Source: Candidatus Gottesmanbacteria bacterium (GTDB lineage: Bacteria; Patescibacteriota; Microgenomatia; UBA10105; UBA927). Taken from it: DNA of 64,000 nt. The stretch is from positions 1,925-65,924 of the forward strand of contig JAUXTO010000017.1 of assembly GCA_030679255.1 (NCBI GenBank). The letters run 5' to 3'. Below are positions 2,662 to 53,066 of this stretch, piece after piece (positions within the stretch are counted from its first letter, which is position 1; every line of letters begins with the position of its first letter). Both the position numbers and the translations under genes were made by a program. Below the pieces are notes generated by a model. It was given only the letters and a program-made list of their open reading frames with translations, did no database searches and was not told where the DNA came from.

Positions 2662-3228
2662 TCAAGAATGAGTTTTGATAAGAATCTTTTCGAGAAGCTC
2701 CGGGAATTGTTTATATTTATTCCCAGGGCATGTGGTCATACTGAAGTGTCCTTGACCCTTCACAACAACAAGCTCTGCTCCCAGAAGTTGTTGGAGTTTT
2801 CTCCCGTGCCATAATGGAACATAGGGATCATTATCCGAATGAAACAATACAAATTTCTTTGCCCTTCTCCGTATCGTATTCCATACAAATGGTTTAACAA
2901 ACATTTCTTTTACTGGAGGAAAATCCAAATCGTCGGTAAATCCGGCGATCAAAAAAGCTCTATCGATAACGACATCGTCTGGCAATGCTTCCAAAAGCCC
3001 CAAGATTGCAACTGCTCCGGATGAATGACCAACAATAATTGACTCGTGATCAAGCTTCCATTGGGAAAAAATGAATTGATTATAGCGTTCGATGTTAGGT
3101 GTTTCAGCCCCTGGTAAATTTGGCGCCCATACGCGATAATTCCGATTTTCTAATTCTTTTTTCAACCACGGTATCCAGTTTCTCGTAGCATCATTGGCGG
3201 TTCCGTGGAGAATAAGTGCATTTTTCAT
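2662..3228 (-). CDS. alpha/beta serine hydrolase, YdeN/RBBP9-like
   Basis: 188 aa, GHSSG nucleophile elbow, DxD and H near the C-terminus. Confidence 0.6.
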   Translation of the reverse strand: MKNALILHGTANDATRNWIPWLKKELENRNYRVWAPNLPGAETPNIERYNQFIFSQWKLDHESIIVGHSSGAVAILGLLEALPDDVVIDRAFLIAGFTDDLDFPPVKEMFVKPFVWNTIRRRAKKFVLFHSDNDPYVPLWHGRKLQQLLGAELVVVKGQGHFSMTTCPGNKYKQFPELLEKILIKTHS

Positions 3229-3435
3229 ATGCCTTTTTGTATCGACGCAATGTTTTGTCTTTGTTCCTGTCTCTTATACAAATATTGACGAATTGCCTCC
3301 CGAATAAATTCGCTCCTGGTTTTCGATTGCTCTTTAGCAAGGCGATCCATCTGACGTAAAAGGGTTGTAGGGATGGAGAAATTTATCATTTGTGTATCCA
3401 TATAGTGATATTATATAAACTTTATATAACTTTTG

Positions 3436-30344: not shown

Positions 30345-30668
30345 ATGGCTCACCCACCGAAGTCACTGCAAGGGACACTCTGGTCAAGCGATGTCAATCA
30401 ACTTGATCTCGACAAACACAGGGCCTACATCATCCACCAAATCCTCACGTTTGGCACCATGGATGAGCTCAAGTGGTTATTTGGGACCTACCCGAAACGG
30501 GAAATTGTCGATACATTTGTCCATCAACCAATGAAAATGTACCCAAATCATATCTATTGGTTCACAAAAAACCACCTCCTTTCTCTCCAACATACCCAGC
30601 TTGACGAACAAAACTATGTCACATCTCTTTTTGGACCAACTCGACCCCGAGCGGCAGCGGGTGTTTGA
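30345..30668 (+). CDS. small partner protein of AbiEii-like NTase (putative antitoxin/regulator), module 1
   Basis: MAHPPKSLQG...LDLDKHRAYIIHQIL...; paralogous to 31331 and 33268; 3' end overlaps the downstream NTase gene by about 53 nt. Confidence 0.6.
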   Translation: MAHPPKSLQGTLWSSDVNQLDLDKHRAYIIHQILTFGTMDELKWLFGTYPKREIVDTFVHQPMKMYPNHIYWFTKNHLLSLQHTQLDEQNYVTSLFGPTRPRAAAGV

Positions 30669-31263
30669 TAAACTCGCCGCGTTTGCCGATACCTTCGTCC
30701 TGGCCGGAGGCACTGCCATCATGCTTCAGATTGGTCATCGGAAGTCATTTGACTTCGATTGTTTTTCTCTCGACTCGCCTCCCAAAACAATTCTTCCCAA
30801 AGTGAAGCGCGTATTCGGCACGAACGTCTATCCAACGATCCAAACCCGAGACTTTCTCACCGTCTATACGCCGGAGCATGTTGAACTAACTTTTGCAAAA
30901 CACCCTTTTAAACCACTACGGCCTATCATGCAAACATCGTCCATCCCGCTCTTTCATATGGATGATCTCGTTGCAAACAAAGCCTATACCATCGGCAGGC
31001 GTCCGGCGTGGAGGGACTACGTCGATCTATTTTTTGTTCTGAAATGGAATCTCTATACGCTGGAAAATGTGATACAACTCGCAGAAAGAAAATTTTCAGG
31101 AGAATTCAACGCAAAGCTTCTCCTCCCTCAACTTACCTATTTTGAAGATATAAAACCCGCAGAAACTACATTTTTGAAAGAATCCTACAACGATGAGGAG
31201 ATCAAGGCGTTTCTCAACGATCAGGTGGACACCTACCTGGCAACCATCTTGCCACAAAAATAA
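30616..31263 (+). CDS. nucleotidyltransferase, AbiEii/AbiGii toxin-like (DUF1814-type), module 1
   Basis: FVLAGGTAIMLQIGHRKSFDFDCF matches the AbiEii N-terminal GGTAL...R.S.D.D motif; about 215 aa. Confidence 0.65.
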   Translation: MSHLFLDQLDPERQRVFDKLAAFADTFVLAGGTAIMLQIGHRKSFDFDCFSLDSPPKTILPKVKRVFGTNVYPTIQTRDFLTVYTPEHVELTFAKHPFKPLRPIMQTSSIPLFHMDDLVANKAYTIGRRPAWRDYVDLFFVLKWNLYTLENVIQLAERKFSGEFNAKLLLPQLTYFEDIKPAETTFLKESYNDEEIKAFLNDQVDTYLATILPQK

Positions 31264-31330: not shown

Positions 31331-31630
31331 ATGGCTCATCCGCCGAAGTCGCTCCAAGCAGTACTGAAATCTGCAGCAATAGAAGACCTTGATTTGGAAA
31401 AAAATAAAGCCTATATCGTACACCAAATACTGGCATTCGGCTCGTGGGAACAAATGGTATGGTTACTCAATTATTACGGAGCCAATATGGTGCGGGAAGT
31501 CTTTCAAAAACAACCGATGAAACTCTATTCTCCGCAGGCCTTTCACTTTTCTCAACTTATTCTCAATACCCCTGATGCGCTAACACACAAAAATCATTAT
31601 GACCAAACTCTTTCTCGAGATCTTGGATGA
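31331..31630 (+). CDS. small partner protein, module 2
   Basis: MAHPPKSLQAVLKSAAIEDLDLEKNKAYIVHQILAFGS... Confidence 0.6.
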   Translation: MAHPPKSLQAVLKSAAIEDLDLEKNKAYIVHQILAFGSWEQMVWLLNYYGANMVREVFQKQPMKLYSPQAFHFSQLILNTPDALTHKNHYDQTLSRDLG

Positions 31631-32243
31631 CGCGCGGATATCTGTTCTAAAAAAATTAAGCGCATGCGCAAAAGACGCAGTACTTGCCGGTGGCACTTCT
31701 CTTGCTCTCCAGATAGGACACAGAAGATCCTTTGATTTTGATCTTTTTATCCCACGACCCATTCCGCGTACGCTCTACAAATCCATCCAAGAACTGTTCC
31801 ATGAATCACCCATGAAACATGTCGACACAGGAGACCAACTCACCGTAGAACTATCCTCCGGGATAGAAATCACATTTCTCTATTACTGGTACGCACCGCT
31901 TTATCCACCAATTCCCATGGCTGCACTTCCGCTTTGCGACAAGAGCGATATAGCCACAGACAAAGCAATGACCATCGGGAGACGCAATGCATGGCGCGAT
32001 TATGTAGATTTCTTTTTTCTTTTGAAAGACCGGCATGTCACACTCGCACAAATCATCACTGATGCCGAAAAACGCTTCGGAAATGAATTTTCGAAAAAAC
32101 TCTTTTTACAACAACTCTCCTACACTGGAGACATAAAAGATTTTTCTATTACCTATATCGGTGGCATTCATACACCACAGGAAATTACAGAATTTTTGGA
32201 ACGGCAAGCAAAAAATTACGCAACATCATCATTGCCGCTGTAG
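31599..32243 (+). CDS. nucleotidyltransferase, AbiEii-like, module 2
   Basis: AVLAGGTSLALQIGHRRSFDFDLF. Confidence 0.65.
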   Translation: MTKLFLEILDDARISVLKKLSACAKDAVLAGGTSLALQIGHRRSFDFDLFIPRPIPRTLYKSIQELFHESPMKHVDTGDQLTVELSSGIEITFLYYWYAPLYPPIPMAALPLCDKSDIATDKAMTIGRRNAWRDYVDFFFLLKDRHVTLAQIITDAEKRFGNEFSKKLFLQQLSYTGDIKDFSITYIGGIHTPQEITEFLERQAKNYATSSLPL

Positions 32244-33267: not shown

Positions 33268-33573
33268 ATGGCTCACCCACCGAAAGATCTCCAAGGGGCC
33301 CTCTGGTCAGCAGAGGTCAACACAATGGATTTGGAGAAAGATAAAAATTACATCATCCATCAGGTCTTTTCACACGGATCACTGGAGGATATGTTCTGGG
33401 TCTTGCGAACCTATCCCCGAGATAGCATCCGGCACGTCTTCGCCACAGTACCGTATAAAGACTACCGCGCACCACGGTTTTACTTCATAAAAAACTTCCT
33501 TCTTAATCTGCGAGATACTCCCATGAACGAACATCGTTATGTCAAAAATATTCCTCGAGATATTAGATCCTGA
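33268..33573 (+). CDS. small partner protein, module 3
   Basis: MAHPPKDLQGALWSAEVNTMDLEKDKNYIIHQVF... Confidence 0.6.
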   Translation: MAHPPKDLQGALWSAEVNTMDLEKDKNYIIHQVFSHGSLEDMFWVLRTYPRDSIRHVFATVPYKDYRAPRFYFIKNFLLNLRDTPMNEHRYVKNIPRDIRS

Positions 33574-34189
33574 ACGACAAAAAGTGTTTAGACAGCTCGC
33601 CGAGTTCCGTGGCGACGGGTATCTTGCCGGCGGCACCGCCCTTGCGCTACAACTTGGTCACCGCGTGTCGATTGATTTTGATGTATTCACCTATAAAGAG
33701 GTAAGTACGCGCCTCCGATCTGCCATTGCAAAACATTTTTCCATACAACAGGTTCATCTCAACACATCCGATCAATACACCTTCACGACCCATGGGAATA
33801 TCGAAGTGACCTTCGTATGGTTTGACTACCCGCTCATCCGTCCACTTATACCAACGCCATCTATCTCACTGGCTACAATAGTAGATATCGCAGCAAATAA
33901 AGCAAACACGCTCGGACTTCGCGCGGTGTGGCGGGACTATGTAGATCTTTTCTGGCTTTTGCGCGAAGAGGGCATGGTACTCCAAGATATTATTGCCTGG
34001 GCAAAACAAAAATACCCTACACAGTTCGTCGAAGCGCAATTTTTGGAACAGCTCTGCTACTTTGCTGATCTTACCGTAACGCCAATACAATTTTTCAAAA
34101 AACGCTATAGCACTAACGATATCCAATCATTCCTTCAAAAAGGAGTTGGTGCCTACCTGGACACAAGGAGAAAACAAGAGCTGCGATAA
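33539..34189 (+). CDS. nucleotidyltransferase, AbiEii-like, module 3
   Basis: YLAGGTALALQLGHRVSIDFDVF. Confidence 0.7.
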   Translation: MSKIFLEILDPERQKVFRQLAEFRGDGYLAGGTALALQLGHRVSIDFDVFTYKEVSTRLRSAIAKHFSIQQVHLNTSDQYTFTTHGNIEVTFVWFDYPLIRPLIPTPSISLATIVDIAANKANTLGLRAVWRDYVDLFWLLREEGMVLQDIIAWAKQKYPTQFVEAQFLEQLCYFADLTVTPIQFFKKRYSTNDIQSFLQKGVGAYLDTRRKQELR

Positions 34190-39971: not shown

Positions 39972-42179
39972 ATGAAACCCACACAAACAAATTCCAAGCT
40001 TCTTACGCCCAAAAAAAAACTGCCCCGGTGGACGAAATATTTTTTTTGGCTTTTGCCCATTGGACTTGTCCTTGTCTCGTACCTCCTTATCCTCAAAGAC
40101 CTCCCTTCTCCCACCAAGCTTGGGAATTATGACGTCCCGGTCGCAACAAAAGTTTATGACCGCAACGGACATTTGCTCTACGACATCTTCGCCGACCAAA
40201 ACAGATCTCCGATACCACTCGCCCACATCCCTAAATATCTCCAACAGGCAACCATTGCCATCGAAGATAAAGATTTTTACCGGCACGGAGGGATCAGTCC
40301 GGTGGGCGGCATGATCCGAGCAATAGTCGCCTCCGTCACGCGAAACAAACTCCAGGGCGGTTCAACGATCACCCAACAGCTTGTTAAATCAGCACTCTTA
40401 ACTTCTGAGCGCACCGTCACGCGTAAAATTAAAGAAATCATCCTCGCCTTTTGGGTCGAAATCCTCTACCCCAAAGATAAAATCCTTGAGATGTATCTCA
40501 ACCAAGTCCCCTATGGGGGTACGGCATGGGGCATAGAAACCGCATCAGAAAAATATTTCGGAAAATCCGCAAGTGAATTGACGCTTGCCGAAGCCTCACT
40601 TCTTGCCGGTCTTCCCCAGGCACCAACGCTCTATTCGCCCTACGGTGCCCATCCGGAATATGCCAAGACCCGCCAAAAAGAAGTGCTCCGCAGAATGGTC
40701 GAAGACCGCTATATCACGCAAGAAGAGTCCGACGCTGTCGACGCACAAACGCTCATCTATAAAAACGCACCGAACATCAAAGCTCCCCACTTTGTCATGT
40801 ATGTCAAACAAGAACTTGTTGACCGATTCGGAGAAGCACTCGTGGAACGCGGGGGGCTCAAAGTCACAACGACCTTAGATCTCCCGCTCCAGGAATATGC
40901 CCAGGCGACCGTAGCCGGAGAGGTCAAAGACTTAGCGAGGCTTGCGGTGACCAACGGCGCCGCTCTCGTCACGAAGCCCGCCACCGGCGAAATTCTTGCC
41001 ATGGTGGGGTCTACGGATTATTTTGCCTCCCCTTCCGGAACGTTTAATGTGACGACCGCCCTCCGGCAACCCGGATCTTCCATCAAACCCATTAATTATG
41101 CCATCGGCCTGGAAAAACGCATCGTCACCCCGGCGACGATGTTTTTGGATATTCCGACGTGTTTTAAAAACTTTGACCAGCCCAATTACTGCCCCAAAAA
41201 TTATGACGGGAAATTCCGCGGTCCTGTTCAGCTCCGGCTGGCGCTCGGAAACTCTTACAATATCCCGTCCGTCAAAATGCTGTACCTCAACTCAGTCCGC
41301 GATATGGTGGCTTCGGCGAGCGCCTTCGGCTTGGATACCCTCACTGATGCTGACCGCTATGGACTCTCATTGGCCCTTGGCGGTGGCGAGGTTCGCATGA
41401 CGGATATGGCCGAAGCATTTGGAGTGTTTGCAAATGGCGGAATACGCAAAAATTTAGTATCAATCCTGAAGGTCGTAGATAAACAAGGCTCCGTGCTCTT
41501 TGAATATAAAGATCCAAATCTCCAAAAAGAAATCCCTTCCCAACTCTTGCTCCAGGGACCACGGGCGGTAAGCGCGGAAACCGCATTTCTCATCTCGCAC
41601 ATACTTCTCGACAACAATGCGCGCCAGGATTCATTCGGTCCCCGTTCTAATCTCTATATTCCCAATCATGCCGTATCCGTCAAAACCGGCACCACGGATG
41701 ACCTCCGGGATAACTGGACCATCGGATTTACCCCTCAGGTGTTGGTAGCGGCTTGGGTCGGCAACAACGATAATTCAAAAATGAATCAAGCGCTTGTCTC
41801 CGGCGTGACCGGAGCCGCTCCCATCTGGAACAAGATTATGACACAAACACTAAACGGAAAGCCCGATGTGTGGCCCAAGCAGCCCGACGGCATCGTCGGA
41901 TCCCAAATCTGTGCGGTTTCCGGACTTCAGGCGCCCAACCCTGATGGCGAGGACAAAGGATGTCCAATGCGATTTGAATATTTTATCAATGGAACCGTAC
42001 CCAAGGAACGTGAAAATCTGAAGCGTTCGGTACTCATAGATAAAGAAACCGGCGATCTAGCACCCGCCGGTAAAACAGACAATGTGGAAATGCAGGAACA
42101 CACCGTGCTCTCCGATGGTATATCCACCTATTGCTTGGACTGCCCGCACGCGGAGGGCAGGGCTATATTAATCAAATGA
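39972..42179 (+). CDS. class A penicillin-binding protein (PBP1A family: transglycosylase + transpeptidase)
   Basis: EDKDFYRHGG, GGSTITQQL (GT51), SSIKP (SxxK), KTGTT. Confidence 0.85.
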   Translation: MKPTQTNSKLLTPKKKLPRWTKYFFWLLPIGLVLVSYLLILKDLPSPTKLGNYDVPVATKVYDRNGHLLYDIFADQNRSPIPLAHIPKYLQQATIAIEDKDFYRHGGISPVGGMIRAIVASVTRNKLQGGSTITQQLVKSALLTSERTVTRKIKEIILAFWVEILYPKDKILEMYLNQVPYGGTAWGIETASEKYFGKSASELTLAEASLLAGLPQAPTLYSPYGAHPEYAKTRQKEVLRRMVEDRYITQEESDAVDAQTLIYKNAPNIKAPHFVMYVKQELVDRFGEALVERGGLKVTTTLDLPLQEYAQATVAGEVKDLARLAVTNGAALVTKPATGEILAMVGSTDYFASPSGTFNVTTALRQPGSSIKPINYAIGLEKRIVTPATMFLDIPTCFKNFDQPNYCPKNYDGKFRGPVQLRLALGNSYNIPSVKMLYLNSVRDMVASASAFGLDTLTDADRYGLSLALGGGEVRMTDMAEAFGVFANGGIRKNLVSILKVVDKQGSVLFEYKDPNLQKEIPSQLLLQGPRAVSAETAFLISHILLDNNARQDSFGPRSNLYIPNHAVSVKTGTTDDLRDNWTIGFTPQVLVAAWVGNNDNSKMNQALVSGVTGAAPIWNKIMTQTLNGKPDVWPKQPDGIVGSQICAVSGLQAPNPDGEDKGCPMRFEYFINGTVPKERENLKRSVLIDKETGDLAPAGKTDNVEMQEHTVLSDGISTYCLDCPHAEGRAILIK

Positions 42180-42182: not shown

Positions 42183-42297
42183 AATCCGACCAATTTACCA
42201 ATCCGACAAATGAATAATCCAATGACGTAATGATTCAATCATTTTTCCTCATCGTTCCAATAATTGGGTTATTGGTCTGGATTGGTCGGATTCCAAC
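42183..42297. repeat. long imperfect inverted repeat (about 45 nt arms) rich in CCAAT/ATTGG between the two PBP genes
   Basis: aatccgaccaatttaccaatccgac...gtctggattggtcggatt; candidate terminator/attenuator or regulator binding site. Confidence 0.6.
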
Positions 42298-42347
42298 TAT
42301 TTTTCTGCTTGTATCCGACCCATAGTCTGTGGTATAACGCGTCCATC

Positions 42348-44678
42348 ATGCTTCCTAAACCAAAAAACATAAAAAGGACTACATCTGCACCGTCCCGACC
42401 GGTCGTTTTTTTTCTTGCGCTTGCCTATATTCTTATGGCTCTCGGAGATGGAGTACGGATGGGTTTTTGGTGGGTCATACGATTGATAATCGTATCCTAT
42501 AAAAAAATTTCCTTACAATCCCGTCCGGTCAAAATATTGGTAACAACGATACGGATGCGTATGCGCGTGGCAATAAGCGTCCGGAAGTTATTCCTCCGTC
42601 AATGGATACAACGGGTAATACCATCAACCAAACCGAAGAAATACGCACGCAAGAACAGACGATGGAACGACATACTTCCCAAATTTTCCCTACCGCAATT
42701 TATTGGGCTCCATCCACTCATGGTTTTCATCTTAGGATCTCTCTCAACGATATTTTTTATCGCGATTCCGCTCATTGCCTATCTCTGGCTCCGCTCTCTC
42801 CCGAACCCTACTCTCCTTACAGTCCGCGATCTTGATGTGACGACAAAGGTCTTTGACCGAAATGGGGCGCTCTTGTATGAAATTTACGCCGATCAAAACC
42901 GCACGCCACTTGCTTTGAGCGACATTCCAAAATACGTCATCCAGGCAACGATAGCCATTGAAGATAAAAATTTTTATTCCCACCAGGGATTTTCCCTCTC
43001 CGGCATGGCCCGCGCCGCACGGGAAACCATGCTCAAGGGCCGCGTTCAAGGAGGATCGACTATTACACAACAGCTCATAAAGTCAGCGCTCCTCACCCCG
43101 GAAATAAACGTTTCCAGAAAGATTAAAGAGATCATTCTCGCTTTTTGGGCAGAACGTCTGTACACAAAAAATCAATTATTAGAAATGTACCTCAATCAAG
43201 TGCCGTATGGGGGCACTGCGTGGGGTATAGAATCCGCGGCACAAACGTATTTTAGTAAATCGGCAAAAAACCTAACCCTCGCTGAAGCTTCACTTTTAGC
43301 AGGACTTCCTGCTGCTCCGAGCGAATATTCACCATTTGGCACGCATGTCGACCGGGCGTTTTCCCGCCAGGGAGAAGTGCTCCGGAGAATGGTCGAAGAC
43401 CGGTATATTACTGAATCTCAAGCCCGGGAAGCCCTCGCGCAGGAAATCCGCTTTGCAAAACCCCGGATCGGTATCCGCGCTCCGCACTTTGTCATGTATA
43501 TTAAAGAAATTCTTGAACGCCGCTACGGCCCGAGGCTCGTCGAACGCGGGGGCCTGCGAATAAAAACGTCGCTTGATCTGGGCCTCCAGGAACGTGTCGA
43601 AGAAATAGTCAATACCAATATTACAAAGCTTGCCTCCCTTCGCGTCGGCAACGGAGCGGCGATCGTCACGAATCCAAAAACCGGAGAAATACTTGCGATG
43701 GTCGGAAGCCGGGACTATTTTGATACCACGCGTGAAGGCAACGTCAATGTCACGGTTGCACACCGGCAACCAGGATCATCCATCAAGGTGGTGACCTATG
43801 CCGCCGCTATGGAAAAAGGGTTTACTGCCGGCTCAATTCTTGATGATAGTCCGGTTTCCTATCCGCAAATCGGTGCACCTGCTTATACCCCGGTCAATTA
43901 TGACAGTAAATTCCATGGCTTTGTGCCTCTCCGGTACGCGCTGGGAAATTCTTATAATATCCCGGCAATACGCACGATAGCCGCAATCGGCGTCCCGGCT
44001 GTCATCCAAAAGGGTCGGGCTATGGGCATCACTTCTTGGATCGACGAAAGTAGGTATGGACTCGCGCTTACGTTAGGCGGCGGAGAAGTCACTATGCTTG
44101 ATATGGCTTCAGTCTTTGGTACATTAGCAAATTTGGGAACGAGAGTAGAATTATTACCCATCACAGAGGTGAGCGATTATACGGGCAGAATTCTCGAAAA
44201 AAATAAATCAAACGAACGCCCACAGGCAGTCAAACCGGAAGTTGCCTGGATCATTGGAAATATCTTAAGTGATAATAATGCGCGGACTGCTGCCTTCGGC
44301 CCCAACTCGATGCTCGTCATCCCCGGTAAAACGGTGTCAGTCAAAACCGGCACGACCGATAACCTGCGGGACAACTGGACCATCGGCTACACGCCAAGCG
44401 TTGTTGCTTCCGTCTGGGTGGGAAACAACAACAACAGCCCGATGAATCCCTACCTTGTCTCCGGAGTTACCGGCGCCGCGCCGATCTGGAATGCCATCAT
44501 GACGGATATCCTCAAAGACCGACCTGATGAAACACTCCCGCGTCCTGACGGCGTCATCAGTGTCCCCTGCTACTATGGCCGCCCTGAATATTTTCTCATC
44601 GGTACCCAACCCACGAGCGGCCAGTGCGCTCCACTCCCTACACCACGACCAACCGAAAGTCCTACGCCTACTCCGTAA
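42348..44678 (+). CDS. class A penicillin-binding protein, second paralog
   Basis: EDKNFYSHQG, GGSTITQQL, SSIKV, KTGTT; start chosen at MLPKPKN. Confidence 0.85.
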   Translation: MLPKPKNIKRTTSAPSRPVVFFLALAYILMALGDGVRMGFWWVIRLIIVSYKKISLQSRPVKILVTTIRMRMRVAISVRKLFLRQWIQRVIPSTKPKKYARKNRRWNDILPKFSLPQFIGLHPLMVFILGSLSTIFFIAIPLIAYLWLRSLPNPTLLTVRDLDVTTKVFDRNGALLYEIYADQNRTPLALSDIPKYVIQATIAIEDKNFYSHQGFSLSGMARAARETMLKGRVQGGSTITQQLIKSALLTPEINVSRKIKEIILAFWAERLYTKNQLLEMYLNQVPYGGTAWGIESAAQTYFSKSAKNLTLAEASLLAGLPAAPSEYSPFGTHVDRAFSRQGEVLRRMVEDRYITESQAREALAQEIRFAKPRIGIRAPHFVMYIKEILERRYGPRLVERGGLRIKTSLDLGLQERVEEIVNTNITKLASLRVGNGAAIVTNPKTGEILAMVGSRDYFDTTREGNVNVTVAHRQPGSSIKVVTYAAAMEKGFTAGSILDDSPVSYPQIGAPAYTPVNYDSKFHGFVPLRYALGNSYNIPAIRTIAAIGVPAVIQKGRAMGITSWIDESRYGLALTLGGGEVTMLDMASVFGTLANLGTRVELLPITEVSDYTGRILEKNKSNERPQAVKPEVAWIIGNILSDNNARTAAFGPNSMLVIPGKTVSVKTGTTDNLRDNWTIGYTPSVVASVWVGNNNNSPMNPYLVSGVTGAAPIWNAIMTDILKDRPDETLPRPDGVISVPCYYGRPEYFLIGTQPTSGQCAPLPTPRPTESPTPTP

Positions 44679-45414: not shown

Positions 45415-45442
45415 TTGACACTGGGAAAATATATGGTATACT
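45415..45442 (+). promoter_or_regulatory. sigma70-like promoter (TTGACA-16-TATACT)
   Basis: ttgacactgggaaaatatatggtatact, read directly. Confidence 0.6.
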
Positions 45443-45772
45443 ACCCTTTACAATTCAATATGGCGATGAAGGAGAAAGCCCTGAGCTAGTCGAAGGGCCT
45501 CGAGCTCCCGAGCCAGTTTCCGAAAAAATCCGAAAGGAAATTAGGAAACATATAAGGTAATCTTTATCTCTGTCAAGGCAAAGTCCCGAGCGAAGTCGAG
45601 GGGCTGACACAGAGGTTTTTATGTAGCCATTTTGGTCTACTCGGATTACGAAGAAGCGTGGCACCGCGTATATTGCTAAGCTAGTCCGTCTTTGGCGGAC
45701 GAAGCTTTAGCGAAGTCCGCCGCTTCAGGGTTTCACACACGGTTGTGAGATTCTGAACCGGCGGATTTTTTG
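45443..45772 (+). promoter_or_regulatory. about 330 nt structured leader of the arg operon with alternative hairpins; contains a T-box-core-like GCGUGGCACCGCG (45656-45668)
   Basis: hairpin ggcggac...gtccgcc (45695-45720) shares its 3' arm with the terminator 5' arm, so the two structures exclude each other; riboswitch/T-box class not established. Confidence 0.4.
45714..45772 (+). terminator. intrinsic terminator immediately upstream of the argG RBS (attenuator)
   Basis: tccgccg...cggcgga stem followed by TTTTTTGTT, then GGAG-N7-ATG. Confidence 0.55.
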
Positions 45773-45784: not shown

Positions 45785-46990
45785 ATGAAAAAAATCGTTT
45801 TAGCATTTTCGGGTGGACTCGATACATCATTTTGCGTGCCATATCTTAAAGAAAAAGGGTACGAGGTTTATGCTGCTACGGTCGATACCGGTGGATTTAC
45901 ACAAAAAGATATTCTAAAAATTAAAGATAGGGCAAAAGAGTTGGATGTCAAAAAACACTACGTTATCGACGGAAAAATATCTCTGTATGACAAGATAGTC
46001 TCCTACGTCATCAAAGGAAATATTCTCAGAGGCGGCGTCTACCCGCTCTGTGCCGGTCCGGAAAGAATTATCCAGGCGATAGAAGTTATAAAAATTGCAA
46101 AAAAAATTGGCGCACAAGCAGTCGCCCACGGGTCAACAGGAGCCGGAAACGATCAGGTGAGATTTGATGTGGCCATCCAAACGCTCGCGCCGGAACTGGA
46201 AATCATTACACCGATCAGAGAGCTGGGAATTACTAGAGGAGGAGAAGTCGCGTTTTTAGAAAAACACGGGATAGCCGTTGAAAAATCCTCGAAAGATTAC
46301 TCAATCAACAAGGGAATGCTTGGTACGACAATCGGCGGCAAGGAGACAAAAAACTCCTGGGAATTACCGCCGGACGAAGTGTACCCGACAGTCGTAAGCA
46401 TTGATACTGCTCCCAAAAACGGTGAGGAAATTATTATTTCTTTTGAAAAAGGATTACCGATGGCTCTAAATGGCAAACCGATGAGTGGAATAGAAATAAT
46501 GAATTATTTAGACAACCTCGGCGCCAAACATGGTGTAGGAAAAGGAATGCATTTGGGAAATACGATTTTAGGAATCAAAGGAAGGGTTGTCTTTGAAGCT
46601 CCAGCAGCCCTGATCCTCATCAAGGCCCATAAGGAACTGGAAAAACTCGTGCTCACAAAGTGGCAGTCATATTGGAAAGATAGTGTATCGGAAGCATACG
46701 GAAATTTTATCCATGAAGGATTGTATTTCGATCCGGTCGTGAATGATATTGAGGCAATGATTGATAGTAGCCAAACGGTAGTCACTGGTGACGTAAAAAT
46801 GAAACTTCATAAAGGAAACATCGTCGTCGTTGGCGTCAAGAGCCCGTATTCGCTTATGGATAAAAGCATCGCGACGTACGGCGAACAAAATCTTCTTTGG
46901 ACCGCGGCTGATGCGGCAGGTTTCAGCAAAATTTATGGGTTGCAAGGAGTTCTGGCGGGAAAGGCAAAAACGTTAGGAGGATCGATATGA
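45785..46990 (+). CDS. argG: argininosuccinate synthase
   Basis: AFSGGLDTS, GSTGAGNDQVRFD. Confidence 0.9.
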   Translation: MKKIVLAFSGGLDTSFCVPYLKEKGYEVYAATVDTGGFTQKDILKIKDRAKELDVKKHYVIDGKISLYDKIVSYVIKGNILRGGVYPLCAGPERIIQAIEVIKIAKKIGAQAVAHGSTGAGNDQVRFDVAIQTLAPELEIITPIRELGITRGGEVAFLEKHGIAVEKSSKDYSINKGMLGTTIGGKETKNSWELPPDEVYPTVVSIDTAPKNGEEIIISFEKGLPMALNGKPMSGIEIMNYLDNLGAKHGVGKGMHLGNTILGIKGRVVFEAPAALILIKAHKELEKLVLTKWQSYWKDSVSEAYGNFIHEGLYFDPVVNDIEAMIDSSQTVVTGDVKMKLHKGNIVVVGVKSPYSLMDKSIATYGEQNLLWTAADAAGFSKIYGLQGVLAGKAKTLGGSI

Positions 46991-47229
46991 AAGAATTATA
47001 TTTCTTTCTCCAAACAGGAACTATTCTCAAAACTCTATCACCAGCAGGAATGTTTATATCAATCGAAGAAGATGAAGTTGATGCTACGCGTGATTATGAA
47101 GTTGATGGCCTTTGGTGGTATGGAACCAAACAAAATCGTGAACGGACAATTTTATTTAGGCATCAAGTACCATTTGTAACAATCGTTTCAGAAAAAGAAG
47201 CATGGGAAAAAGCATTTAAAGTCGGATAA
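46987..47229 (+). CDS. hypothetical small protein
   Basis: 80 aa, ATGA overlap with argG stop; no motif. Confidence 0.3.
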   Translation: MKELYFFLQTGTILKTLSPAGMFISIEEDEVDATRDYEVDGLWWYGTKQNRERTILFRHQVPFVTIVSEKEAWEKAFKVG

Positions 47230-47233
47230 ATAT

Positions 47234-48259
47234 ATGAAACTTAAAAAAATACCATCAATAGTCAAAAATGTTCCGTTGTCCGACGAGGTACAGGTCGGAA
47301 GGTCTATCGTGCCAGAAGAAGGACTCATTATTCTTGTGGAAGCGCTTGACGATGAAGGGAAAAATAATGTGCTGGAATTTACCACTGGCAGATTGGGAAA
47401 ACTGATAAAGGGCGACGTGGTGCCGGCCGTACTCGGAAAAAGAAGGGCCCTCAAAGAATTTGCCGGTGACATACCGCAGGCACTCAAGCCCGGCGATGAG
47501 TTGTATTGGCTTTGTGAAAGCGGACTCGTGGGAGAAATAGTCGGCGTCAACGAGCGCTGGGGAACGCCCATGAAAGTAAAAGTATTGGGAGCCTTGCTTC
47601 ATCACGGAAAAACGCTCAATATTAAACATTCCGCTATTCCCTGGCAAAATGATGTTGTCAAAAGCGCTCCGATTGTGGCGGTTCTCGCCACCTGTATGGA
47701 TTCGGGCAAGACGACGCTCGTTTGTAAACTGGCAGAACACTTTAGAAATAATGGGTTAACCGTTATGGGTGCCAAGCTCACGGGAGTCGCGTTTATGCAG
47801 GATCCTTTTAAGATGAAAGATAACGGACTGGATACCGTTATGGATTTCGTCGATGCCGGGCTGCCTTCGACTTGCGGGAATGCTGAGGATGCGATCAAGG
47901 CCGCCTGTGGAATCATCACGGAATTGAACAACGGAGAGCCCGACCTCATCCTTGCAGAATTTGGAGACGGCATCATCGGAGAATATAACGTGGCGTCAAT
48001 TATCACCCATCCCTCTATCAAAAAACATGTTGTGATGACCGTGGTCGCCGCCAATGATTTGATGGCCGCCTGGGGAGCAAAAAAGAAAATGACGGAATTA
48101 GGATTCACGATCGACATGCTTACCGGACCGGTCGCCAACAGTCACGTCGGCGTTGAGTATATCGAACATAATTTCGGGATACCGGCCGAAAGCAATCAAC
48201 ACGCCATCCCCAAAACAATCGCCATTTTGGAAAAGAAAATGAAGGAGGCAAGTGTATGA
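47234..48259 (+). CDS. uncharacterised P-loop protein (DUF1611-like?)
   Basis: Walker-A-like VAVLATCMDSGKTTL in the C-terminal half; DUF1611 assignment is from memory only. Confidence 0.3.
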   Translation: MKLKKIPSIVKNVPLSDEVQVGRSIVPEEGLIILVEALDDEGKNNVLEFTTGRLGKLIKGDVVPAVLGKRRALKEFAGDIPQALKPGDELYWLCESGLVGEIVGVNERWGTPMKVKVLGALLHHGKTLNIKHSAIPWQNDVVKSAPIVAVLATCMDSGKTTLVCKLAEHFRNNGLTVMGAKLTGVAFMQDPFKMKDNGLDTVMDFVDAGLPSTCGNAEDAIKAACGIITELNNGEPDLILAEFGDGIIGEYNVASIITHPSIKKHVVMTVVAANDLMAAWGAKKKMTELGFTIDMLTGPVANSHVGVEYIEHNFGIPAESNQHAIPKTIAILEKKMKEASV

Positions 48260-49296
48260 ACAAGCATATAAAACATTTCTATTCGGCACTTGATTATTCG
48301 TCGTCCGAAATACAATATCTCGTCAATCTTGCGCTCAAAATGAAATCCGGATCGGTAAAGAAATCGCTCGCCGGAAAAACACTTGGCATGCTTTTCTTTA
48401 ACCCATCGCTCAGAACCAGGGTTTCTTTTGCCGTCGCGATGCTAAAACTTGGCGGATGTGCCATAGATTTGCCAATCAAGGAAAGTTATACGTTTGAATA
48501 CGGCAATGGAATAGTTATGGACAAGAGCACCATTGAACACGTCAAGGACGCGGCTGGGGTGCTCTCCCGCTATTGTGATGCATTGGCAATCAGATCAAGC
48601 GACCTTATCACGACATCATCGGACAGTGTTGAGGTATCCAGTTGGGAAATGTTGAAAAAAGATACCGTTATCAAAAAATTCATGGAGTATGCCACCGTAC
48701 CGGTCATCAATATGGAATCCAACGTCTACCACCCATGCCAGGGTCTGGGAGACGCTTTGACGATCAAAGAAAAATTGGGAAATCCTAAGGGGAAAAAATA
48801 TGTACTCACGTGGGCCTATCATCCCAAAGCGCTCCCCATGGCAACCCCCAATTCTCAAATACTCGCCGCCTGCGACCTGGGCATGGACGTTGTCATCGCC
48901 AATCCTCCGGGCTGGGAGCTGGAACCATCGATAATAAACGCCATGGCGCTCAGAGCCAAACAAAGTGGCGGCTCGCTTGCCTTCAGTGATTCTATGAATG
49001 AAGCAATTAAGGGAAGCGACGTGGTTTGCGCCAAAAGCTGGGGAGCATTAAAATGCTATGGTAATTGGTCAGAAGAAAAAAAATTAAGAGATCAGCTAAA
49101 ACATTGGATCGTGACCAAAGAAAAAATGTCACTCACTCATCACGCCCTCTTTATGCACTGCTTGCCCGTCAGAAGAAACGTGGAGGCAACCGAAGAAGTA
49201 CTCGATAGTAAAAATTCAGTCATCCTGGATGAAGCGGAAAATAGAATGTGGGCCCAAATGGCGATACTCGAAACAGTATTAGGAGAAACAGTATGA
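48256..49296 (+). CDS. carbamoyltransferase, OTC/ATC superfamily, atypical (acyl-ornithine transcarbamylase-like)
   Basis: SLRTR (STRTR-like), HPCQ, HCLP; canonical ornithine SMG motif replaced by KSWG. Confidence 0.75.
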   Translation: MNKHIKHFYSALDYSSSEIQYLVNLALKMKSGSVKKSLAGKTLGMLFFNPSLRTRVSFAVAMLKLGGCAIDLPIKESYTFEYGNGIVMDKSTIEHVKDAAGVLSRYCDALAIRSSDLITTSSDSVEVSSWEMLKKDTVIKKFMEYATVPVINMESNVYHPCQGLGDALTIKEKLGNPKGKKYVLTWAYHPKALPMATPNSQILAACDLGMDVVIANPPGWELEPSIINAMALRAKQSGGSLAFSDSMNEAIKGSDVVCAKSWGALKCYGNWSEEKKLRDQLKHWIVTKEKMSLTHHALFMHCLPVRRNVEATEEVLDSKNSVILDEAENRMWAQMAILETVLGETV

Positions 49297-50789
49297 AAAA
49301 ACCTAACCTTGTGACCGCGGGATTTATCGTTTCAGAAAAACAATTAGCGCTGGACCACCAGATGGTGTCGTATGATATCTGGGGGACACTGGCGCATGTC
49401 CTTATGCTCTATAAAGAAAACATTCTTAAGAAAGAGTTCGTCAAGCCCATCCTTCAAGCGCTCACTGATATACAAAAAGAAGTGGATGCGGATCAGTTCA
49501 CGATCGACCCAAAAAAAGGAGCGCAACTTTCTCTGGAAGCAAAAATTGTGGAAAAAGCGGGAGATGCCGGATATAGCGTGCACACCGGAAGGAGTAGAAA
49601 CGATCAAGTGATGGTGACCGAACAGCTTTATCTTCGCGACACAATGATCGGGCTCATTGAAAACACGCAGCCAGTTCTTGCGGCACTTCTATCACTCGCA
49701 AAAAAACATCAAGGAACGGTTATGCCGGGCTACACACATATGCAACCGGCCAAGGCAACAAGTTTTGGCCAGTGGGCACTTGCGTATCTTCATGGATTTA
49801 CGAGAGCAATAAAAACCATTACGGACCAATACGAAACGTATAATCTCTGTCCATTGGGTGCATGTGAATCCTATGGAACGAGCTGGCCGCTCGACCGCAC
49901 CTATACCGCGGACCTTCTTGGTTTTCCCAAGGTTTGGGAAATACCGCAGGATGTCGTATCGTCCAGAGGATTTGTGCAACTTGGATATCTGACGGGCATG
50001 CGGGACATCTGCCTGGTAGCGAGTAAACTTGCCCAGGATCTCCTGCTGTTTACGACATTTGAATACGGCATGATAAATCTTGGAGACGACGTCGCTCAGC
50101 GTATGCATCCAATTACCGGTTCGTCCGTCATGGCACAAAAGAAAAACCCTGACGCGTTGGAACTCGTGCGCGCAACAGCACCCCAACTCATAGGATTCAC
50201 GTCGATAGTTGGTAATATTCTGTCCGGGTTACCCATGGGATATAACCGGGATAGCCGCGAGGTGAAAGAATATATTGACCTGGGATTATCAAAAACATTA
50301 TCTATGGTGGGGACGCTTGCATCCGTACTCGCGAGCCTGACGGTCAACAAAAAAAGAATGATGGAATTGGTCACCGCAAACTATTCGATGACGACGGACG
50401 TAGCCGATGCTATCTCGCAGTCATCCGGCGTGGGATACAGGCTTGTCTATAAAGTAGTAGGCCAGGTCGTGGACGAATCCATGAAACGCGGAAAACTTCT
50501 GTCTCTTATATCTGCTCAGGATATTATGAAAAAAGCGTCTACGCTAGGCATTACGCTTCGTGTGACGAACACACAACTCAAAGACGCCATGGACCCACAG
50601 AGGGCGCTTGAAAAGCGGACACACATCGGAGGAAGTACCAAAAAAACCATGGCGATATCTCTTGCACACGGACAAACGTTTATCCACGACGCACGCAAAT
50701 GGGTATCGACCAAAAAACAGATGGTGAGCAATGCAAAATCAAAAACATGGGCTATTGCAAAAAAAATTATTGAGGAAGGAACTCTATGA
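49293..50789 (+). CDS. argH: argininosuccinate lyase
   Basis: GSSVMAQKKNPD signature (GSSxMPQKKNPD); start chosen at MKKPNL overlapping the upstream stop (ATGA). Confidence 0.9.
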   Translation: MKKPNLVTAGFIVSEKQLALDHQMVSYDIWGTLAHVLMLYKENILKKEFVKPILQALTDIQKEVDADQFTIDPKKGAQLSLEAKIVEKAGDAGYSVHTGRSRNDQVMVTEQLYLRDTMIGLIENTQPVLAALLSLAKKHQGTVMPGYTHMQPAKATSFGQWALAYLHGFTRAIKTITDQYETYNLCPLGACESYGTSWPLDRTYTADLLGFPKVWEIPQDVVSSRGFVQLGYLTGMRDICLVASKLAQDLLLFTTFEYGMINLGDDVAQRMHPITGSSVMAQKKNPDALELVRATAPQLIGFTSIVGNILSGLPMGYNRDSREVKEYIDLGLSKTLSMVGTLASVLASLTVNKKRMMELVTANYSMTTDVADAISQSSGVGYRLVYKVVGQVVDESMKRGKLLSLISAQDIMKKASTLGITLRVTNTQLKDAMDPQRALEKRTHIGGSTKKTMAISLAHGQTFIHDARKWVSTKKQMVSNAKSKTWAIAKKIIEEGTL

Positions 50790-51889
50790 GCACACAAACA
50801 TTACTTACTCGTCTCGTAAAGATTCCGTCATATTCCGGCCAGGAACGCGCATTGGCCGCTTTTATCATGGACTGGGCCAGTGCCCACGGTATGCAAACTA
50901 TATTGCAACAGGGCAATGTCATAATTCCATTTGCGGCGCATGCAAACAAGGCGTTAATCTTTAACGCGCACATGGACACGGTGAAACCCGGACAGGAAAA
51001 CCTCTGGACCTATCCTCCATCAGGACAAAACGCCGGTGTCGTAAAGAACGGAAAATTATATGGATTAGGCGCAAGCGATGACAAAGCTGCGATCGCGTCA
51101 TTCCTACTGTTGGCGTTACAACTCCAAGCGTCTCCCCCGCCCATAGATGTGTTTATTGTTTTTGTGACAGGCGAAGAAACGGACGGATCGGGAAGTCAAT
51201 CGTTTGTACAGTATTTTCAAAAAAAATATGCTACGAAGTACCAAAAAGTGGCAGCCATTATCGGCGAACCCACAGACCTTCAAACGATAGAAATTGGTCA
51301 CAGGGGTAATATGTTCTTACAAATTACGACACAGGGCGATGCTGGCCATGGATCTCAACCAAAAAATATCAAGACCCATGCCGTTATAGAAAACATAAAA
51401 GCGATTGAAAAAATTGTTTCGTTGGAAAAATCGTTCATCAATAAATTTTCCGATCCAATACTCGGTAGTCCATCATGTTGTTTAACGGGCATACAAAGCG
51501 ACACTTCATCACCAAACTCAGTGTCTTCCACCTGCTCATCACTGTGGGATGTCAGAACGACCCCAAAAATACATTCCGAAGTTATTCCTCTCATGCAGAA
51601 AGCGCTGGGAAAAACCGTTGAAATAACCCTCGTTGGGAAACCCGCGTCCTTTGGGTTTACCAAGCCGGATTCTAAAATCGTAACAAAACTCAAGGAGCTT
51701 ATTCCGAGTGTGAAGGTTGCCATCTCCCCCGGCTCCAATGACATTTGTGCCTTTACTGCCGCAGGAATCAGCGCTGTTACATTTGGACCCGGCCAAAAAG
51801 ATACTATACATAAACCCGATGAGTACGTACAATTACAAAAAATTGACGATGCAGTTGATGTATATAAACAGCTCATCTACTCGTGGTAA
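50786..51889 (+). CDS. M20 family deacylase (ArgE/DapE-like)
   Basis: HMDTV, GEETDG metal-binding motifs. Confidence 0.75.
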   Translation: MSTQTLLTRLVKIPSYSGQERALAAFIMDWASAHGMQTILQQGNVIIPFAAHANKALIFNAHMDTVKPGQENLWTYPPSGQNAGVVKNGKLYGLGASDDKAAIASFLLLALQLQASPPPIDVFIVFVTGEETDGSGSQSFVQYFQKKYATKYQKVAAIIGEPTDLQTIEIGHRGNMFLQITTQGDAGHGSQPKNIKTHAVIENIKAIEKIVSLEKSFINKFSDPILGSPSCCLTGIQSDTSSPNSVSSTCSSLWDVRTTPKIHSEVIPLMQKALGKTVEITLVGKPASFGFTKPDSKIVTKLKELIPSVKVAISPGSNDICAFTAAGISAVTFGPGQKDTIHKPDEYVQLQKIDDAVDVYKQLIYSW

Positions 51890-51893
51890 TGCT

Positions 51894-53066
51894 ATGAACA
51901 ATCTAAACAAGCTTCATCTATCCGGTTACGGTCGTGACTTTCTGCGGACGTGGGACAAATCCGCGGATCATCTTAAAGCCACGCTTGCTGTCGCCCAGAC
52001 CTTGCGCGACTGGCACCGCAAAGGAATATCACCAAAAGTTTTTTCCTCCAGCATGGCCGTCTCCATATTCCGCGATAAATCTACGCGCACAAAATACAGC
52101 TACTCTGCAGCGGCAAATTTACTGGGTCTGGAAATTGAAGACCTCGATGAAAAAAAGTCCCAAATCGCTCATGGGGAAACGATTATGGAAACAGTGAACA
52201 TGCTCTCGTTTCTTACGCGTACGATAGGCATCCGCGACGACATCTTTTTAGGGTTGGGCCACAGCTATATGACAGAAGTGGCCCTAGCTGCCGATTGGGG
52301 ATACGCCAATGGCGTACTCGACCAGCGCCCGAGTGTCATCAATCTCCAATGCGACGAGGACCACCCGACGCAATCATTGTCCGATCTTCTCCACCTCTCC
52401 AATTATTTTGGCGGGTTAGATAAGCTCCGTGGGAAAAACCTCACCATGAGTTGGGCCTACTCCCCTTCCTACGGAAAACCCCTGTCCGTGCCGCAGGGAA
52501 TTATTGCCCTCCTCCCCCGCTTTGGCATTAACGTAACCCTTTCCTATCCCAAGGGCTACAACCTCATTCCGGAGATTGAAAGCCTTGCTACGCGGGAAGC
52601 CAAAAAGGACGGCAGCACATTTCGGATCACCCATGACATGAGAGAGGCATTTATAGATGCAGACATCGTCTATCCCAAGTCATGGGCATCGTATGCCGTG
52701 ATGAGTCGCCGCACCGAGCTCTTGAAAAAAAACTATGTGAAGGGGCTTGAACATCTCGAGGGCGAAGCGCTCGCCCAAAATGCGAAACACAAAGACTGGA
52801 CGTGTACCGAAAAACTCATGAAACAAACGCGTAACGGTAATGCGCTCTATATGCACTGTCTCCCTGCCGATATCAGTGGCGTGAGCTGCAAAGAAGGAGA
52901 GGTTGATGCAAAAGTATTTGAAAAATATAAAAAACAAACGTATACCCAGGCCGGCTACAAACCGTATATTATTGCTGCCATGATCCTCCTCACCCAATTT
53001 GGAGAAAAGACACCGAAAATTCTCCGTTCAATCGGACAAAGAAACCAATCGGTCTTCAATTTTTGA
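51894..53066 (+). CDS. carbamoyltransferase superfamily protein, YgeW-like (about 390 aa)
   Basis: STRTK, HPTQ, HCLP; SMG replaced by KSWA; longer than OTC/ATC, consistent with YgeW-type. Confidence 0.6.
   Translation: MNNLNKLHLSGYGRDFLRTWDKSADHLKATLAVAQTLRDWHRKGISPKVFSSSMAVSIFRDKSTRTKYSYSAAANLLGLEIEDLDEKKSQIAHGETIMETVNMLSFLTRTIGIRDDIFLGLGHSYMTEVALAADWGYANGVLDQRPSVINLQCDEDHPTQSLSDLLHLSNYFGGLDKLRGKNLTMSWAYSPSYGKPLSVPQGIIALLPRFGINVTLSYPKGYNLIPEIESLATREAKKDGSTFRITHDMREAFIDADIVYPKSWASYAVMSRRTELLKKNYVKGLEHLEGEALAQNAKHKDWTCTEKLMKQTRNGNALYMHCLPADISGVSCKEGEVDAKVFEKYKKQTYTQAGYKPYIIAAMILLTQFGEKTPKILRSIGQRNQSVFNF

Follow-up and report, generated by a model that had tools for sequence, protein, structure and literature searches.

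A T-box-controlled arginine operon in a Gottesmanbacteria genome that may convert ornithine to arginine through succinylated intermediates

Arrangement of the operon

A 64,000-nucleotide stretch of the genome of a Candidatus Gottesmanbacteria bacterium (contig JAUXTO010000017.1, positions 1,925 to 65,924; hereafter the window, in whose own numbering coordinates without a locus name are given) carries an operon of seven open reading frames, all on the + strand, at positions 45785-53066. In order, these encode argininosuccinate synthase (argG), a small protein of 80 residues, a P-loop protein, a knotted transcarbamylase of the ArgF' type, argininosuccinate lyase (argH), an M20-family deacylase, and a second knotted transcarbamylase, YgeW. 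Most neighboring genes overlap; the junctions consist of a 4-nt overlap (ATGA) or a spacer of 1-5 nt, and a GGAG-type ribosome-binding site precedes each ATG. An arginine-specific T-box leader heads the operon. Together, these features suggest a route by which ornithine may be converted to arginine through succinylated intermediates.

The argG product (45785-46990, + strand; 401 residues) scored 377 bits against NF001770 (cutoff 334) and contained both Pfam ArgG domains, and the argH product (49293-50789, + strand; 498 residues) scored 341 bits against TIGR00838 (cutoff 279.5). A preliminary description of the window, made from the letters alone, had the gene order, reading-frame lengths, and transcarbamylase motifs right, and its coordinates needed correction only at the start of the last gene. 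This gene, ygeW, begins either at ATG 51894 (390 residues) or at ATG 51858 (402 residues, the choice of the gene caller); position 51891 reads GCT, which is no start codon, and the N-termini of YgeW orthologs favor 51894. No argB, argC, argD, argJ, carbamate kinase, or carbamoyl-phosphate synthetase gene was seen in the rest of the 64-kb window, where translations were judged by eye.

An arginine T-box leader precedes argG

Just upstream of argG lies a T-box leader (45457-45772, + strand) that the preliminary description missed. It has Stem I with a GA motif (45462-45514), a specifier loop with the Arg codon CGA (45501-45503) followed by a purine (CGA-G, 45501-45504), the motif AAGAAGCGUGGCACCGCG (45651-45668), a UGGN bulge in 'GCGUGGCACCGCG', and competing antiterminator and terminator structures. 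The terminator hairpin and its U-run (45715-45772; -42.9 kcal/mol, z = -7.3, U6) end 3 nt before the argG ribosome-binding site. Fifteen nucleotides before the leader is a promoter-like site, TTGACA-16-TATACT with an upstream TG (45415-45442, + strand), which is a consensus match only (11 of 12 positions) and the best in the region.

Despite sharing these hallmarks with the T-box family RF00230, the leader matched that model (45457-45696) with just 26.4 bits, far under the gathering score of 93 (E = 0.01 in a 9.6-kb scan and 4.5e-4 in a 421-nt scan), because its Stem I is shortened. It also differs in belonging to Patescibacteria and in controlling arginine biosynthesis through an Arg codon. 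The element is conserved before argG in at least seven other Microgenomates loci (loci from other genomes are designated by L numbers), with scores upstream of argG of 70 bits in L004, 38 in L090, 35.7 in both L089 and L092, 35 in L087, and 23 in L093. The string CGA + purine + CUCC was invariant in six loci; the distal part of Stem I varied in sequence and retained its hairpin. Control by an Arg T-box argues that the operon, YgeW included, supplies arginine rather than serving catabolism.

At two of the related loci, a tRNA gene lies between the leader and argG. In L091, this is a tRNA-Arg(TCT) gene (8693-8770). In L089, a tRNA detected by Rfam only (8686-8759), with the anticodon loop CCGCGGA (GCG anticodon), stands between the T-box terminator and argG, and the specifier loop of the L089 leader reads CGC. 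These tRNAs may be co-regulated with the arginine operon. Arg-specific control by such a leader in Patescibacteria, at some loci over a unit that includes a tRNA-Arg gene, widens the known range of this regulatory RNA.

ArgF' has succinyl-type specificity residues

ArgF' (48256-49296, + strand; 346 residues) scored 400 bits against NF003384, the N-acetylornithine carbamoyltransferase model (cutoff 288), at most 224 bits against ornithine transcarbamylase (OTC) models, and at most 106 bits against aspartate transcarbamylase (ATC) models. Its best match in a PDB sequence search was the N-acetylornithine transcarbamylase (AOTCase) of Xanthomonas campestris (3kzc-type chains; 299 bits, residues 4-344), and the top-ranking chains were the E92V and K302E mutants of this enzyme. 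The N-succinylornithine transcarbamylase (SOTCase) of Bacteroides fragilis and OTCs scored ~157 bits; the low score to the SOTCase places ArgF' in a Xanthomonas-like branch.

AOTCases have Glu92, Asn185, and Lys302, SOTCases have A/S/P/V/Q, Pro, and V/I/E at the same positions, and mutation of Glu92 to Val, Ala, Ser, or Pro turns X. campestris AOTCase into an SOTCase (PMC4581275). In a MAFFT alignment with the X. campestris reference, ArgF' had Ile, Pro, and Glu at positions 92, 185, and 302, retained the common anchors E144 and K252, and had Tyr in place of W77. The alignment from the PDB search gave the same three residues, in 'kstIeh', 'kaLP', and 'rrnvEat'. Pro185 and Glu302 fit the SOTCase list, and Ile92, which is off the published list, is chemically near Val and is accepted as SOTCase-type in the appendix of the GapMind preprint (bioRxiv 10.1101/2024.10.14.618325). 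All 71 of the ArgF' proteins that we tabulated beside P-loop homologs lacked Glu92 and had Pro185, with I-P-E as the combination of the window clade. Because of these specificity residues, we predict that ArgF' acts on N-succinyl-L-ornithine or at least on a non-acetyl acyl-ornithine. The NCBI/PGAP name of this protein and its relatives in the Candidate Phyla Radiation (CPR) is N-acetylornithine carbamoyltransferase, and the specificity residues argue against that name for the whole I-P-E clade.

The carbamoyl-phosphate motifs quoted in the preliminary description were confirmed in both transcarbamylases (SLRT51, HPCQ159, and HCLP301 in ArgF'; STRT, HPTQ, and HCLP in YgeW), as were AKSWG and PKSWA, and DxxxSMG occurred in neither protein. 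By motif register alone, with the B. fragilis anchors H176, R178, and R278 unaligned, ArgF' also has H-P-K in 'YHPKALP' and an Arg three residues past HCLP ('HCLPVRR'). The proposal that both enzymes are non-canonical and act on something other than free ornithine was borne out insofar as model scores place them as ArgF' and YgeW, and not within OTC or ATC; for the acyl group, we predict succinyl and not acetyl.

The same description paired the acyl-ornithine transcarbamylase with a deacylase, and the ArgF' and M20 genes indeed remain together in many genomes. The M20 protein (50786-51889, + strand; 367 residues), a predicted N-succinyl(acyl)citrulline deacylase (ArgE'), belongs to the ArgE/DapE family (164 bits, cutoff 218), falls below all curated cutoffs, and has as its best PDB match 3ct9, an 'acetylornithine deacetylase' (102 bits). 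L093 and L087, the Gottesmanbacteria clusters with a full pathway, contain orthologs (56% and 42% identity), which also occur in clusters without YgeW. We considered M20 as a YgeY-like partner of YgeW and ruled this out, as it is kept where YgeW is absent and scores 137 bits against the YgeY model (cutoff 321).

Overall, the window resembles the X. campestris system (PDB 3kzc) in the knotted fold family and carbamoyl-phosphate motifs of its ArgF' and in the grouping of M20, ArgG, and ArgH genes in one cluster, but it has I/P/E for E/N/K, a P-loop gene, and YgeW, and lacks argB/C/D in the cluster. It resembles the B. fragilis SOTCase pathway (PDB 2fg6) in its predicted N-succinylated intermediates and in the published signature of Pro185 and Glu/Val/Ile at 302; low overall similarity (157 bits) and Ile92 set it apart. 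The first enzyme of the Bacteroides pathway is presumably a GNAT-type protein and not a P-loop protein.

P-loop homologs of two types occupy arginine clusters

The type-a P-loop protein (47234-48259, + strand; 341 residues), which we predict to be an N-succinyl (acyl) transferase with L-ornithine as its proposed acceptor, belongs to a family with 1,706 representatives at 50% identity (E<=0.001). In a survey of one genome per species, 80 loci with homologs spanned Patescibacteria, Chloroflexota (Ktedonobacteria/Chloroflexia), Acidobacteriota, Bacteroidota/Balneolales, Myxococcota, Pseudomonadota, Oligoflexia, and one Woesearchaeote. Nearly all of these homologs lie within arginine clusters, with arg genes adjacent at ~75 of the 80 loci. 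In L052, the NCBIfam assignments give argG-P-argC-argD-ArgF'-argB-M20-argH, a linear pathway complete but for the first acylation step.

Copies without arginine genes nearby also exist. Cyanobacterial (L032) and Peribacteria (L034) homologs have no arg neighbors, and an intronless homolog with 43% identity on a 6-Mb contig of the fungus Penicillium frequentans (L094, 10001-11095) lies among genes for MFS transporters, an FolC-like ligase, an NmrA-like protein, and a P450.

A related prediction has been published. ACG33_RS14135 (A0A127FCT3) of Steroidobacter denitrificans was predicted, without experiment, to be an alternative N-succinylglutamate synthase on the basis of its operon context, its absence from every genome that has ArgA, and a distant Foldseek match to DgcN (7XRJ) (GapMind 2026 preprint, Appendix 2; bioRxiv 10.1101/2024.10.14.618325). 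Matched by description and not by alignment, that protein is like the family studied here, and especially like its type b, in being hypothetical, nearly confined to arginine operons, located beside an ArgF' without Glu92, and remotely P-loop/DgcN-like. The adjacency of arg genes and of Glu92-less ArgF' proteins reported above agrees with that context; co-occurrence with argB, argC, and argD holds for type b and not for the type a of the window, which is ~32% identical to type b, is never beside argC, and sits in clusters without argB/C/D.

The two types are defined by 26 (type a) and 52 (type b) non-redundant loci. First, their neighbors differ. ArgF' directly follows the P-loop gene in 24 of 26 type-a loci, argC lies within 10 kb in none of them, and argB lies in one; argC directly follows in 40 of 52 type-b loci. 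Second, their sequences differ, with a median identity of 0.32 between types as compared with 0.49 within type a and 0.41 within type b, and positions 75/94/96/102/189/302/320/321 read G N G C R D N A in type b and E C S I Q N S N in type a. We had read a charge switch, from R189 in type b to Q189 in type a, as marking a change from glutamate to ornithine, and this idea was weakened by exceptions in both directions (L059, L073, L082, and L086 in type b; L016, L020, and L032 in type a), leaving only G75 (b) versus E75 (a) clean.

Type-a genes (Pa) occur in two layouts, argG-Pa-ArgF'-argH-M20 in Microgenomates-type CPR bacteria and Pa-ArgF'-carA-carB(-argH-argG) in Ktedonobacteria, both of which are putative 'ornithine-to-arginine' modules. 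Gottesmanbacteria offer a direct comparison with type-b genes (Pb). L087, on a 1.1-Mb contig, reads argG-Pb-argC-argD-argB-ArgF'-argH-M20, L093 reads argG-ArgF'-argH-M20-Pb-argC-argD-argB-YgeW, and the window, L007, L008, L090, and L092 read argG-orf-Pa-ArgF'-argH-M20-YgeW; across these layouts, the ArgF' proteins are 68-72% identical and the M20 proteins 42-56%. Pa is thus found exactly where the Pb-argC-argD-argB block is missing, and on the simplest reading it would make N-succinylornithine straight from ornithine.

Type-a clusters of Daviesbacteria adjoin a CtlX citrulline hydrolase gene (333.6 bits, cutoff 334), an arginine-deiminase-like gene, and an arginyl-tRNA synthetase gene, neighbors which indicate that these organisms handle free citrulline and ornithine. 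At L004 (13567-20008; also L005, L006, L022, L024, L025, and L030), the block lies on the strand opposite to the type-a cluster and contains CtlX, an M20 gene, arginyl-tRNA synthetase, and a distant arginine-deiminase-like protein. The same L004 block contains a homolog of 'methanogenesis marker protein 11' (280 bits, cutoff 256), which is odd for a bacterium.

YgeW alternates with CarAB

The last gene (51894-53066, + strand; 390 residues) encodes a YgeW-type knotted transcarbamylase, which scored 586 bits against NF005538 (cutoff 453) and 572 against TIGR03316 (cutoff 500) and was 59% identical to E. coli YgeW (3q98) in a gapless alignment of 369 residues (497 bits). Of 18 active-site positions taken from a published list (PMC4581275, Table 1, section 5), 17 were identical to the E. 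coli enzyme (S71, T72, R73, T74, Q98, R122, D124, Q160, H165, Q168, S200, K203, K270, C330, L331, D334, and E344); the alignment puts K363 out by one residue, with a conserved Lys next to it. The protein, whose length the preliminary description called YgeW-like, is an ortholog of YgeW and not a second arginine-pathway paralog.

Two 2025 studies found that E. coli YgeW phosphorolyzes the ureido group of 2,3-diureidopropanoate in vitro to give carbamoyl phosphate, from which carbamate kinase then makes ATP. The window protein matches the YgeW enzymes of the anaerobic urate pathway (2,8-dioxopurine; E. coli and Clostridium sporogenes) at the equivalog level and has the same active site. It differs in ending a T-box-controlled arginine operon, and neither the window nor its orthologous counterparts L090, L092, and L093 yielded a carbamate kinase, ssnA, hyuA, ygeX, or ygeY gene. 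Any carbamoyl phosphate it released in this setting would feed biosynthesis, not ATP formation.

The position of ygeW is informative. In L089, whose Pa protein is 73% identical to that of the window, carA-carB follow M20 and thereby occupy the slot of the window's ygeW; in Ktedonobacteria, carA-carB come right after ArgF'. YgeW is, moreover, the last gene of the arginine operon in two layouts, that of the window and that of L093. Because of this positional alternation with carA-carB, we propose YgeW as the carbamoyl-phosphate supplier, a role that sequence and position suggest.

Two further observations concern these slots and loci. In L009 (7362-8348; Roizmanbacteria), the place taken elsewhere by M20-YgeW or M20-carAB is occupied, after argH, by a gene for a 328-residue transcarbamylase, an unclassified family member with scores under all cutoffs (OTC 253, AOTC 240, and YgeW 236 bits). 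Upstream of the carAB-type cluster, L089 carries (1-2978) an ADP-forming acyl-CoA synthetase-like gene (CoA_binding/Succ_CoA_lig/ATP-grasp_5) and genes for a two-subunit 2-oxoacid:ferredoxin oxidoreductase, which are possible sources of an acyl-CoA donor.

A proposed route from ornithine to arginine

We propose that the operon is anabolic and of a salvage type. Uncharged tRNA-Arg would switch it on through the T-box leader. The type-a P-loop enzyme would N-alpha-succinylate L-ornithine, with succinyl-CoA or succinate plus a nucleoside triphosphate (NTP) as donor; ArgF' would carbamoylate N-succinylornithine with carbamoyl phosphate; M20 would remove the succinyl group to give citrulline; and ArgG and ArgH would convert citrulline and aspartate to arginine. 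Carbamoyl phosphate would come from YgeW, which would phosphorolyze a ureido compound, 2,3-diureidopropanoate to judge by homology. YgeW would thereby replace the CarAB of sister lineages at the same position and spare 2 ATP per carbamoyl phosphate. YgeW and ArgF' would in effect pass a carbamoyl group between ureido compounds, with desuccinylation and the ArgG step pulling the reactions forward. The N2-succinylation of free ornithine with succinyl-CoA presumably has a precedent in Pseudomonas aeruginosa AruFG (AstA family), which differs in belonging to an unrelated protein family and in its catabolic role.

We consider the complete mechanism, with succinylated intermediates and YgeW as the source of carbamoyl phosphate, evenly poised between being right and being wrong. 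Succinylation of ornithine by type a is the most economical reading of the gene contexts, though unproven. A more general formulation, in which type-a proteins would be ornithine N-alpha-succinyltransferases that form, with SOTCase-type ArgF' and M20, a three-enzyme replacement for OTC, with YgeW as an ATP-free carbamoyl-phosphate donor under Arg T-box control in CPR bacteria, is tentative and in our judgment likelier to fail than to hold. The self-contained acylate-carbamoylate-deacylate route from ornithine envisaged in the preliminary description is thus favored by comparative genomics, through the placement of type a directly upstream of ArgF' in clusters without argB/C/D and of type b with argC-argD-argB; we predict succinyl as the acyl group.

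Several points weigh against this proposal. First, the published prediction for a protein like those of the P-loop family names glutamate, not ornithine, and the functions proposed for the family are predictions from sequence and context. Second, the evidence from this genome covers a 64-kb window, and argB/C/D as well as a type-b gene may be encoded outside it. Third, context separates the types imperfectly: in L020 (Chloroflexia), a type-a-like gene with R189 has argB and an M20 gene as neighbors, ArgF' directly follows three of the type-b genes, and the exceptions at position 189 removed one marker of a changed acceptor. Fourth, Ile92 is outside the experimentally tested set (V, A, S, and P only). 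Fifth, many CPR bacteria have no tricarboxylic acid cycle as a source of succinyl-CoA, and succinylating ornithine only to desuccinylate citrulline would spend an acyl donor on what a plain OTC could accomplish. Finally, the window holds no genes that make the known substrate of YgeW, and transcarbamylase equilibria favor ureido formation, so YgeW would need the pull of ArgF' and the downstream steps.

Already known were the AOTCase/SOTCase-type pathway, the YgeW reaction, and the function that the preprint predicts for the P-loop protein. New here are a type-a subfamily whose clusters lack argB/C/D, the way in which carAB and YgeW alternate within arginine operons, and the presence in Patescibacteria of an Arg T-box. 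Literature searches on DUF1611, DgcN, Microgenomates argininosuccinate, and T-box riboswitches in the CPR gave nothing useful. The sole published annotation of the P-loop family is that of a predicted 'missing ArgA', and the split into types a and b, a natural contrast inside one candidate phylum, provides a testable hypothesis of an ornithine versus a glutamate acceptor. If type a does succinylate ornithine, then annotation tools such as GapMind and PGAP would mis-call these genomes, and scavenged ornithine would become a source of arginine for reduced genomes and Ktedonobacteria through a three-enzyme OTC replacement. From the operon, it would seem that some CPR bacteria are not simple arginine auxotrophs and may turn ornithine, a common excreted fermentation product, into arginine. 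Carbamoyl-phosphate supply, if real, would be a second and anabolic function of YgeW, whose first was worked out in 2025.

Alternative explanations

The main competitor is a full de novo succinyl arginine pathway in which the P-loop protein would be an N-succinylglutamate synthase, an alternative ArgA, with argB, argC, and argD encoded elsewhere. This is the function predicted for ACG33_RS14135 in the preprint, and it accords with the position of type b right before argC, with the argB neighbor in L020, with the presence of argB/C/D in other Gottesmanbacteria, and with the finding of type a alone at the loci retrieved from Ktedonobacteria, which are free-living and presumably synthesize arginine de novo. 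It does not explain why argC is missing from within 10 kb of every type-a gene when compact CPR relatives keep Pb-argC-argD-argB together, and no argB/C/D was seen in the window. Furthermore, argC is common in Gottesmanbacteria, but, with contigs matched by length, those bearing ArgF' fall into one set shared with the type-a matches and another shared with the ArgC matches, and apparently no contig is common to the type-a and ArgC lists, a weak proxy for genome content. The types, at ~32% identity, have fixed differences in conserved motifs. We regard the glutamate reading as a serious possibility that is nevertheless improbable on balance.

A different objection places YgeW outside arginine synthesis, either as a catabolic enzyme of the 2,8-dioxopurine type that is co-transcribed by chance or as part of a YgeW/YgeY-like pair with M20 acting on a ureido compound. 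The characterized role of YgeW is catabolic, its gene usually lies beside carbamate kinase, its active site here is unchanged from that of E. coli, and M20 does give 137 bits on the YgeY model. But ygeW lies inside the Arg-T-box operon ~5 nt past M20 with no terminator between them, ends arginine operons of two different layouts, alternates with carA-carB at one position, and has no carbamate kinase, ygeX, ssnA, or hyuA nearby; M20 scores far under the YgeY cutoff and is retained by clusters that have no YgeW. A role apart from arginine is therefore possible, and we doubt it.

The chemistry of the P-loop protein is the next point at issue. The preliminary description raised the possibility of a DUF1611/DgcN-like protein, and this did not stand. 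PF07755 (DUF1611_C) did not match the window protein at E<=0.1, an NCBIfam scan gave no DgcN-type match, and 7XRJ was neither found by a PDB profile search nor present among the top 50 Foldseek matches. Searches of the PDB with the protein alone and with a 66-sequence profile gave only chance or Walker-A-level matches, and family matches were all sub-threshold (MobB TIGR00176, E = 1e-5, 25.5 bits, cutoff 76.2; PF03205, E = 1.4e-3; CbiA). In an AlphaFold2 model (pLDDT 95.3), residues ~1-125 form a beta-rich N-domain, the C-terminal domain is a SIMIBI P-loop domain, and the model retrieved only generic SIMIBI P-loops in Foldseek (FtsY, HypB, and dethiobiotin synthetase). The N-domain of DUF1611 proteins, by contrast, we take to be Rossmann-like. 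Links that remain are the P-loop C-terminal domain, weak PF07755 matches in 37 of 66 homologs (best E 4.6e-5), the UniRef label 'DUF1611 domain-containing' on Ktedonobacteria members, and the precedent that DgcN, a D-glutamate N-acetyltransferase, sets for amino acid N-acylation by a P-loop protein. The relationship to DUF1611 is at best a distant one.

Such results would also fit a protein that is no acyltransferase at all and has another SIMIBI NTPase role, for example as an ATP-dependent succinate ligase, a metallochaperone or assembly factor for M20 or ArgF', or a regulator. Apart from the generic NTPases retrieved and the weak DUF1611 link, this idea draws on the Walker A sequence (...CMDSGKTT, at about residues 155-161), in which G158, K159, and T160 are invariant in the family, as are K181, D190, and E242; an invariant Walker A Lys/Thr and an acidic residue after a beta-strand are seen in NTP-hydrolyzing enzymes, and one homolog is labeled a Ni-binding GTPase by JGI. 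However, the gene persists in Ktedonobacteria clusters without an adjacent M20, it fills exactly the sole missing enzymatic step of full clusters, and its N-domain has an invariant motif (L67-G68-x-R70-x-A72...G78..P81) whose residues form a motif-rich surface typical of a substrate site. A ligase would, moreover, be compatible with the proposed route, with a change of acyl donor alone. We therefore think a non-acyltransferase role unlikely. We also dropped the idea of a novel carbamate kinase or other carbamoyl-phosphate-forming enzyme, as full clusters lack step 1 alone and carAB or YgeW co-occurs.

Least probable of all, in our estimation, is an acetyl version of the route, with ArgF' as an N-acetylornithine transcarbamylase and M20 as an acetylcitrulline deacetylase (the NCBI annotation): a fermentative CPR cell would more plausibly supply acetyl-CoA than succinyl-CoA, ArgF' exceeds the NF003384 cutoff, and X. 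campestris AOTCase is its nearest solved structure, but all three discriminating residues are non-AOTCase, replacement of Glu92 alone converts an AOTCase to an SOTCase, and the top PDB chains are the E92V and K302E mutants.

Other features of the locus

The 80-residue reading frame between argG and the P-loop gene (46987-47229, + strand) matched no Pfam or NCBIfam model, and the gene caller chose an internal start giving 59 residues. Reading frames of 77-92 residues occupy the same spot in five loci, namely the window, L007 (~2200-2440), L008 (~9730-10000), L090 (9771-10004), and L092 (1784-2050), with identities of 22-40% and a conserved C-terminus, 'V(T/S)E(E/K)EAWxxA'. The frame is confined to the YgeW-bearing sub-lineage and absent from L089 and L091. 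From this conservation it appears to be a real, fast-evolving gene. A LysW-like amino-group carrier was ruled out, given the lack of an acidic C-terminus and of zinc-finger cysteines and the restriction to one sub-lineage.

Upstream of the operon, a PP2C-SOD-PBP-PBP block is syntenic with L090 and L091, and two class-A penicillin-binding-protein genes lie in tandem in the window (39972-42179 and 42264-44678). Three paralogous genes for proteins of ~215 residues form another tandem array (30601-31263, 31599-32243, and 33539-34189). In L004, the small-subunit rRNA gene is spread over 2.3 kb (1977-4285) and contains a LAGLIDADG endonuclease reading frame (2535-3116); rRNA insertions of this kind are known from CPR bacteria.

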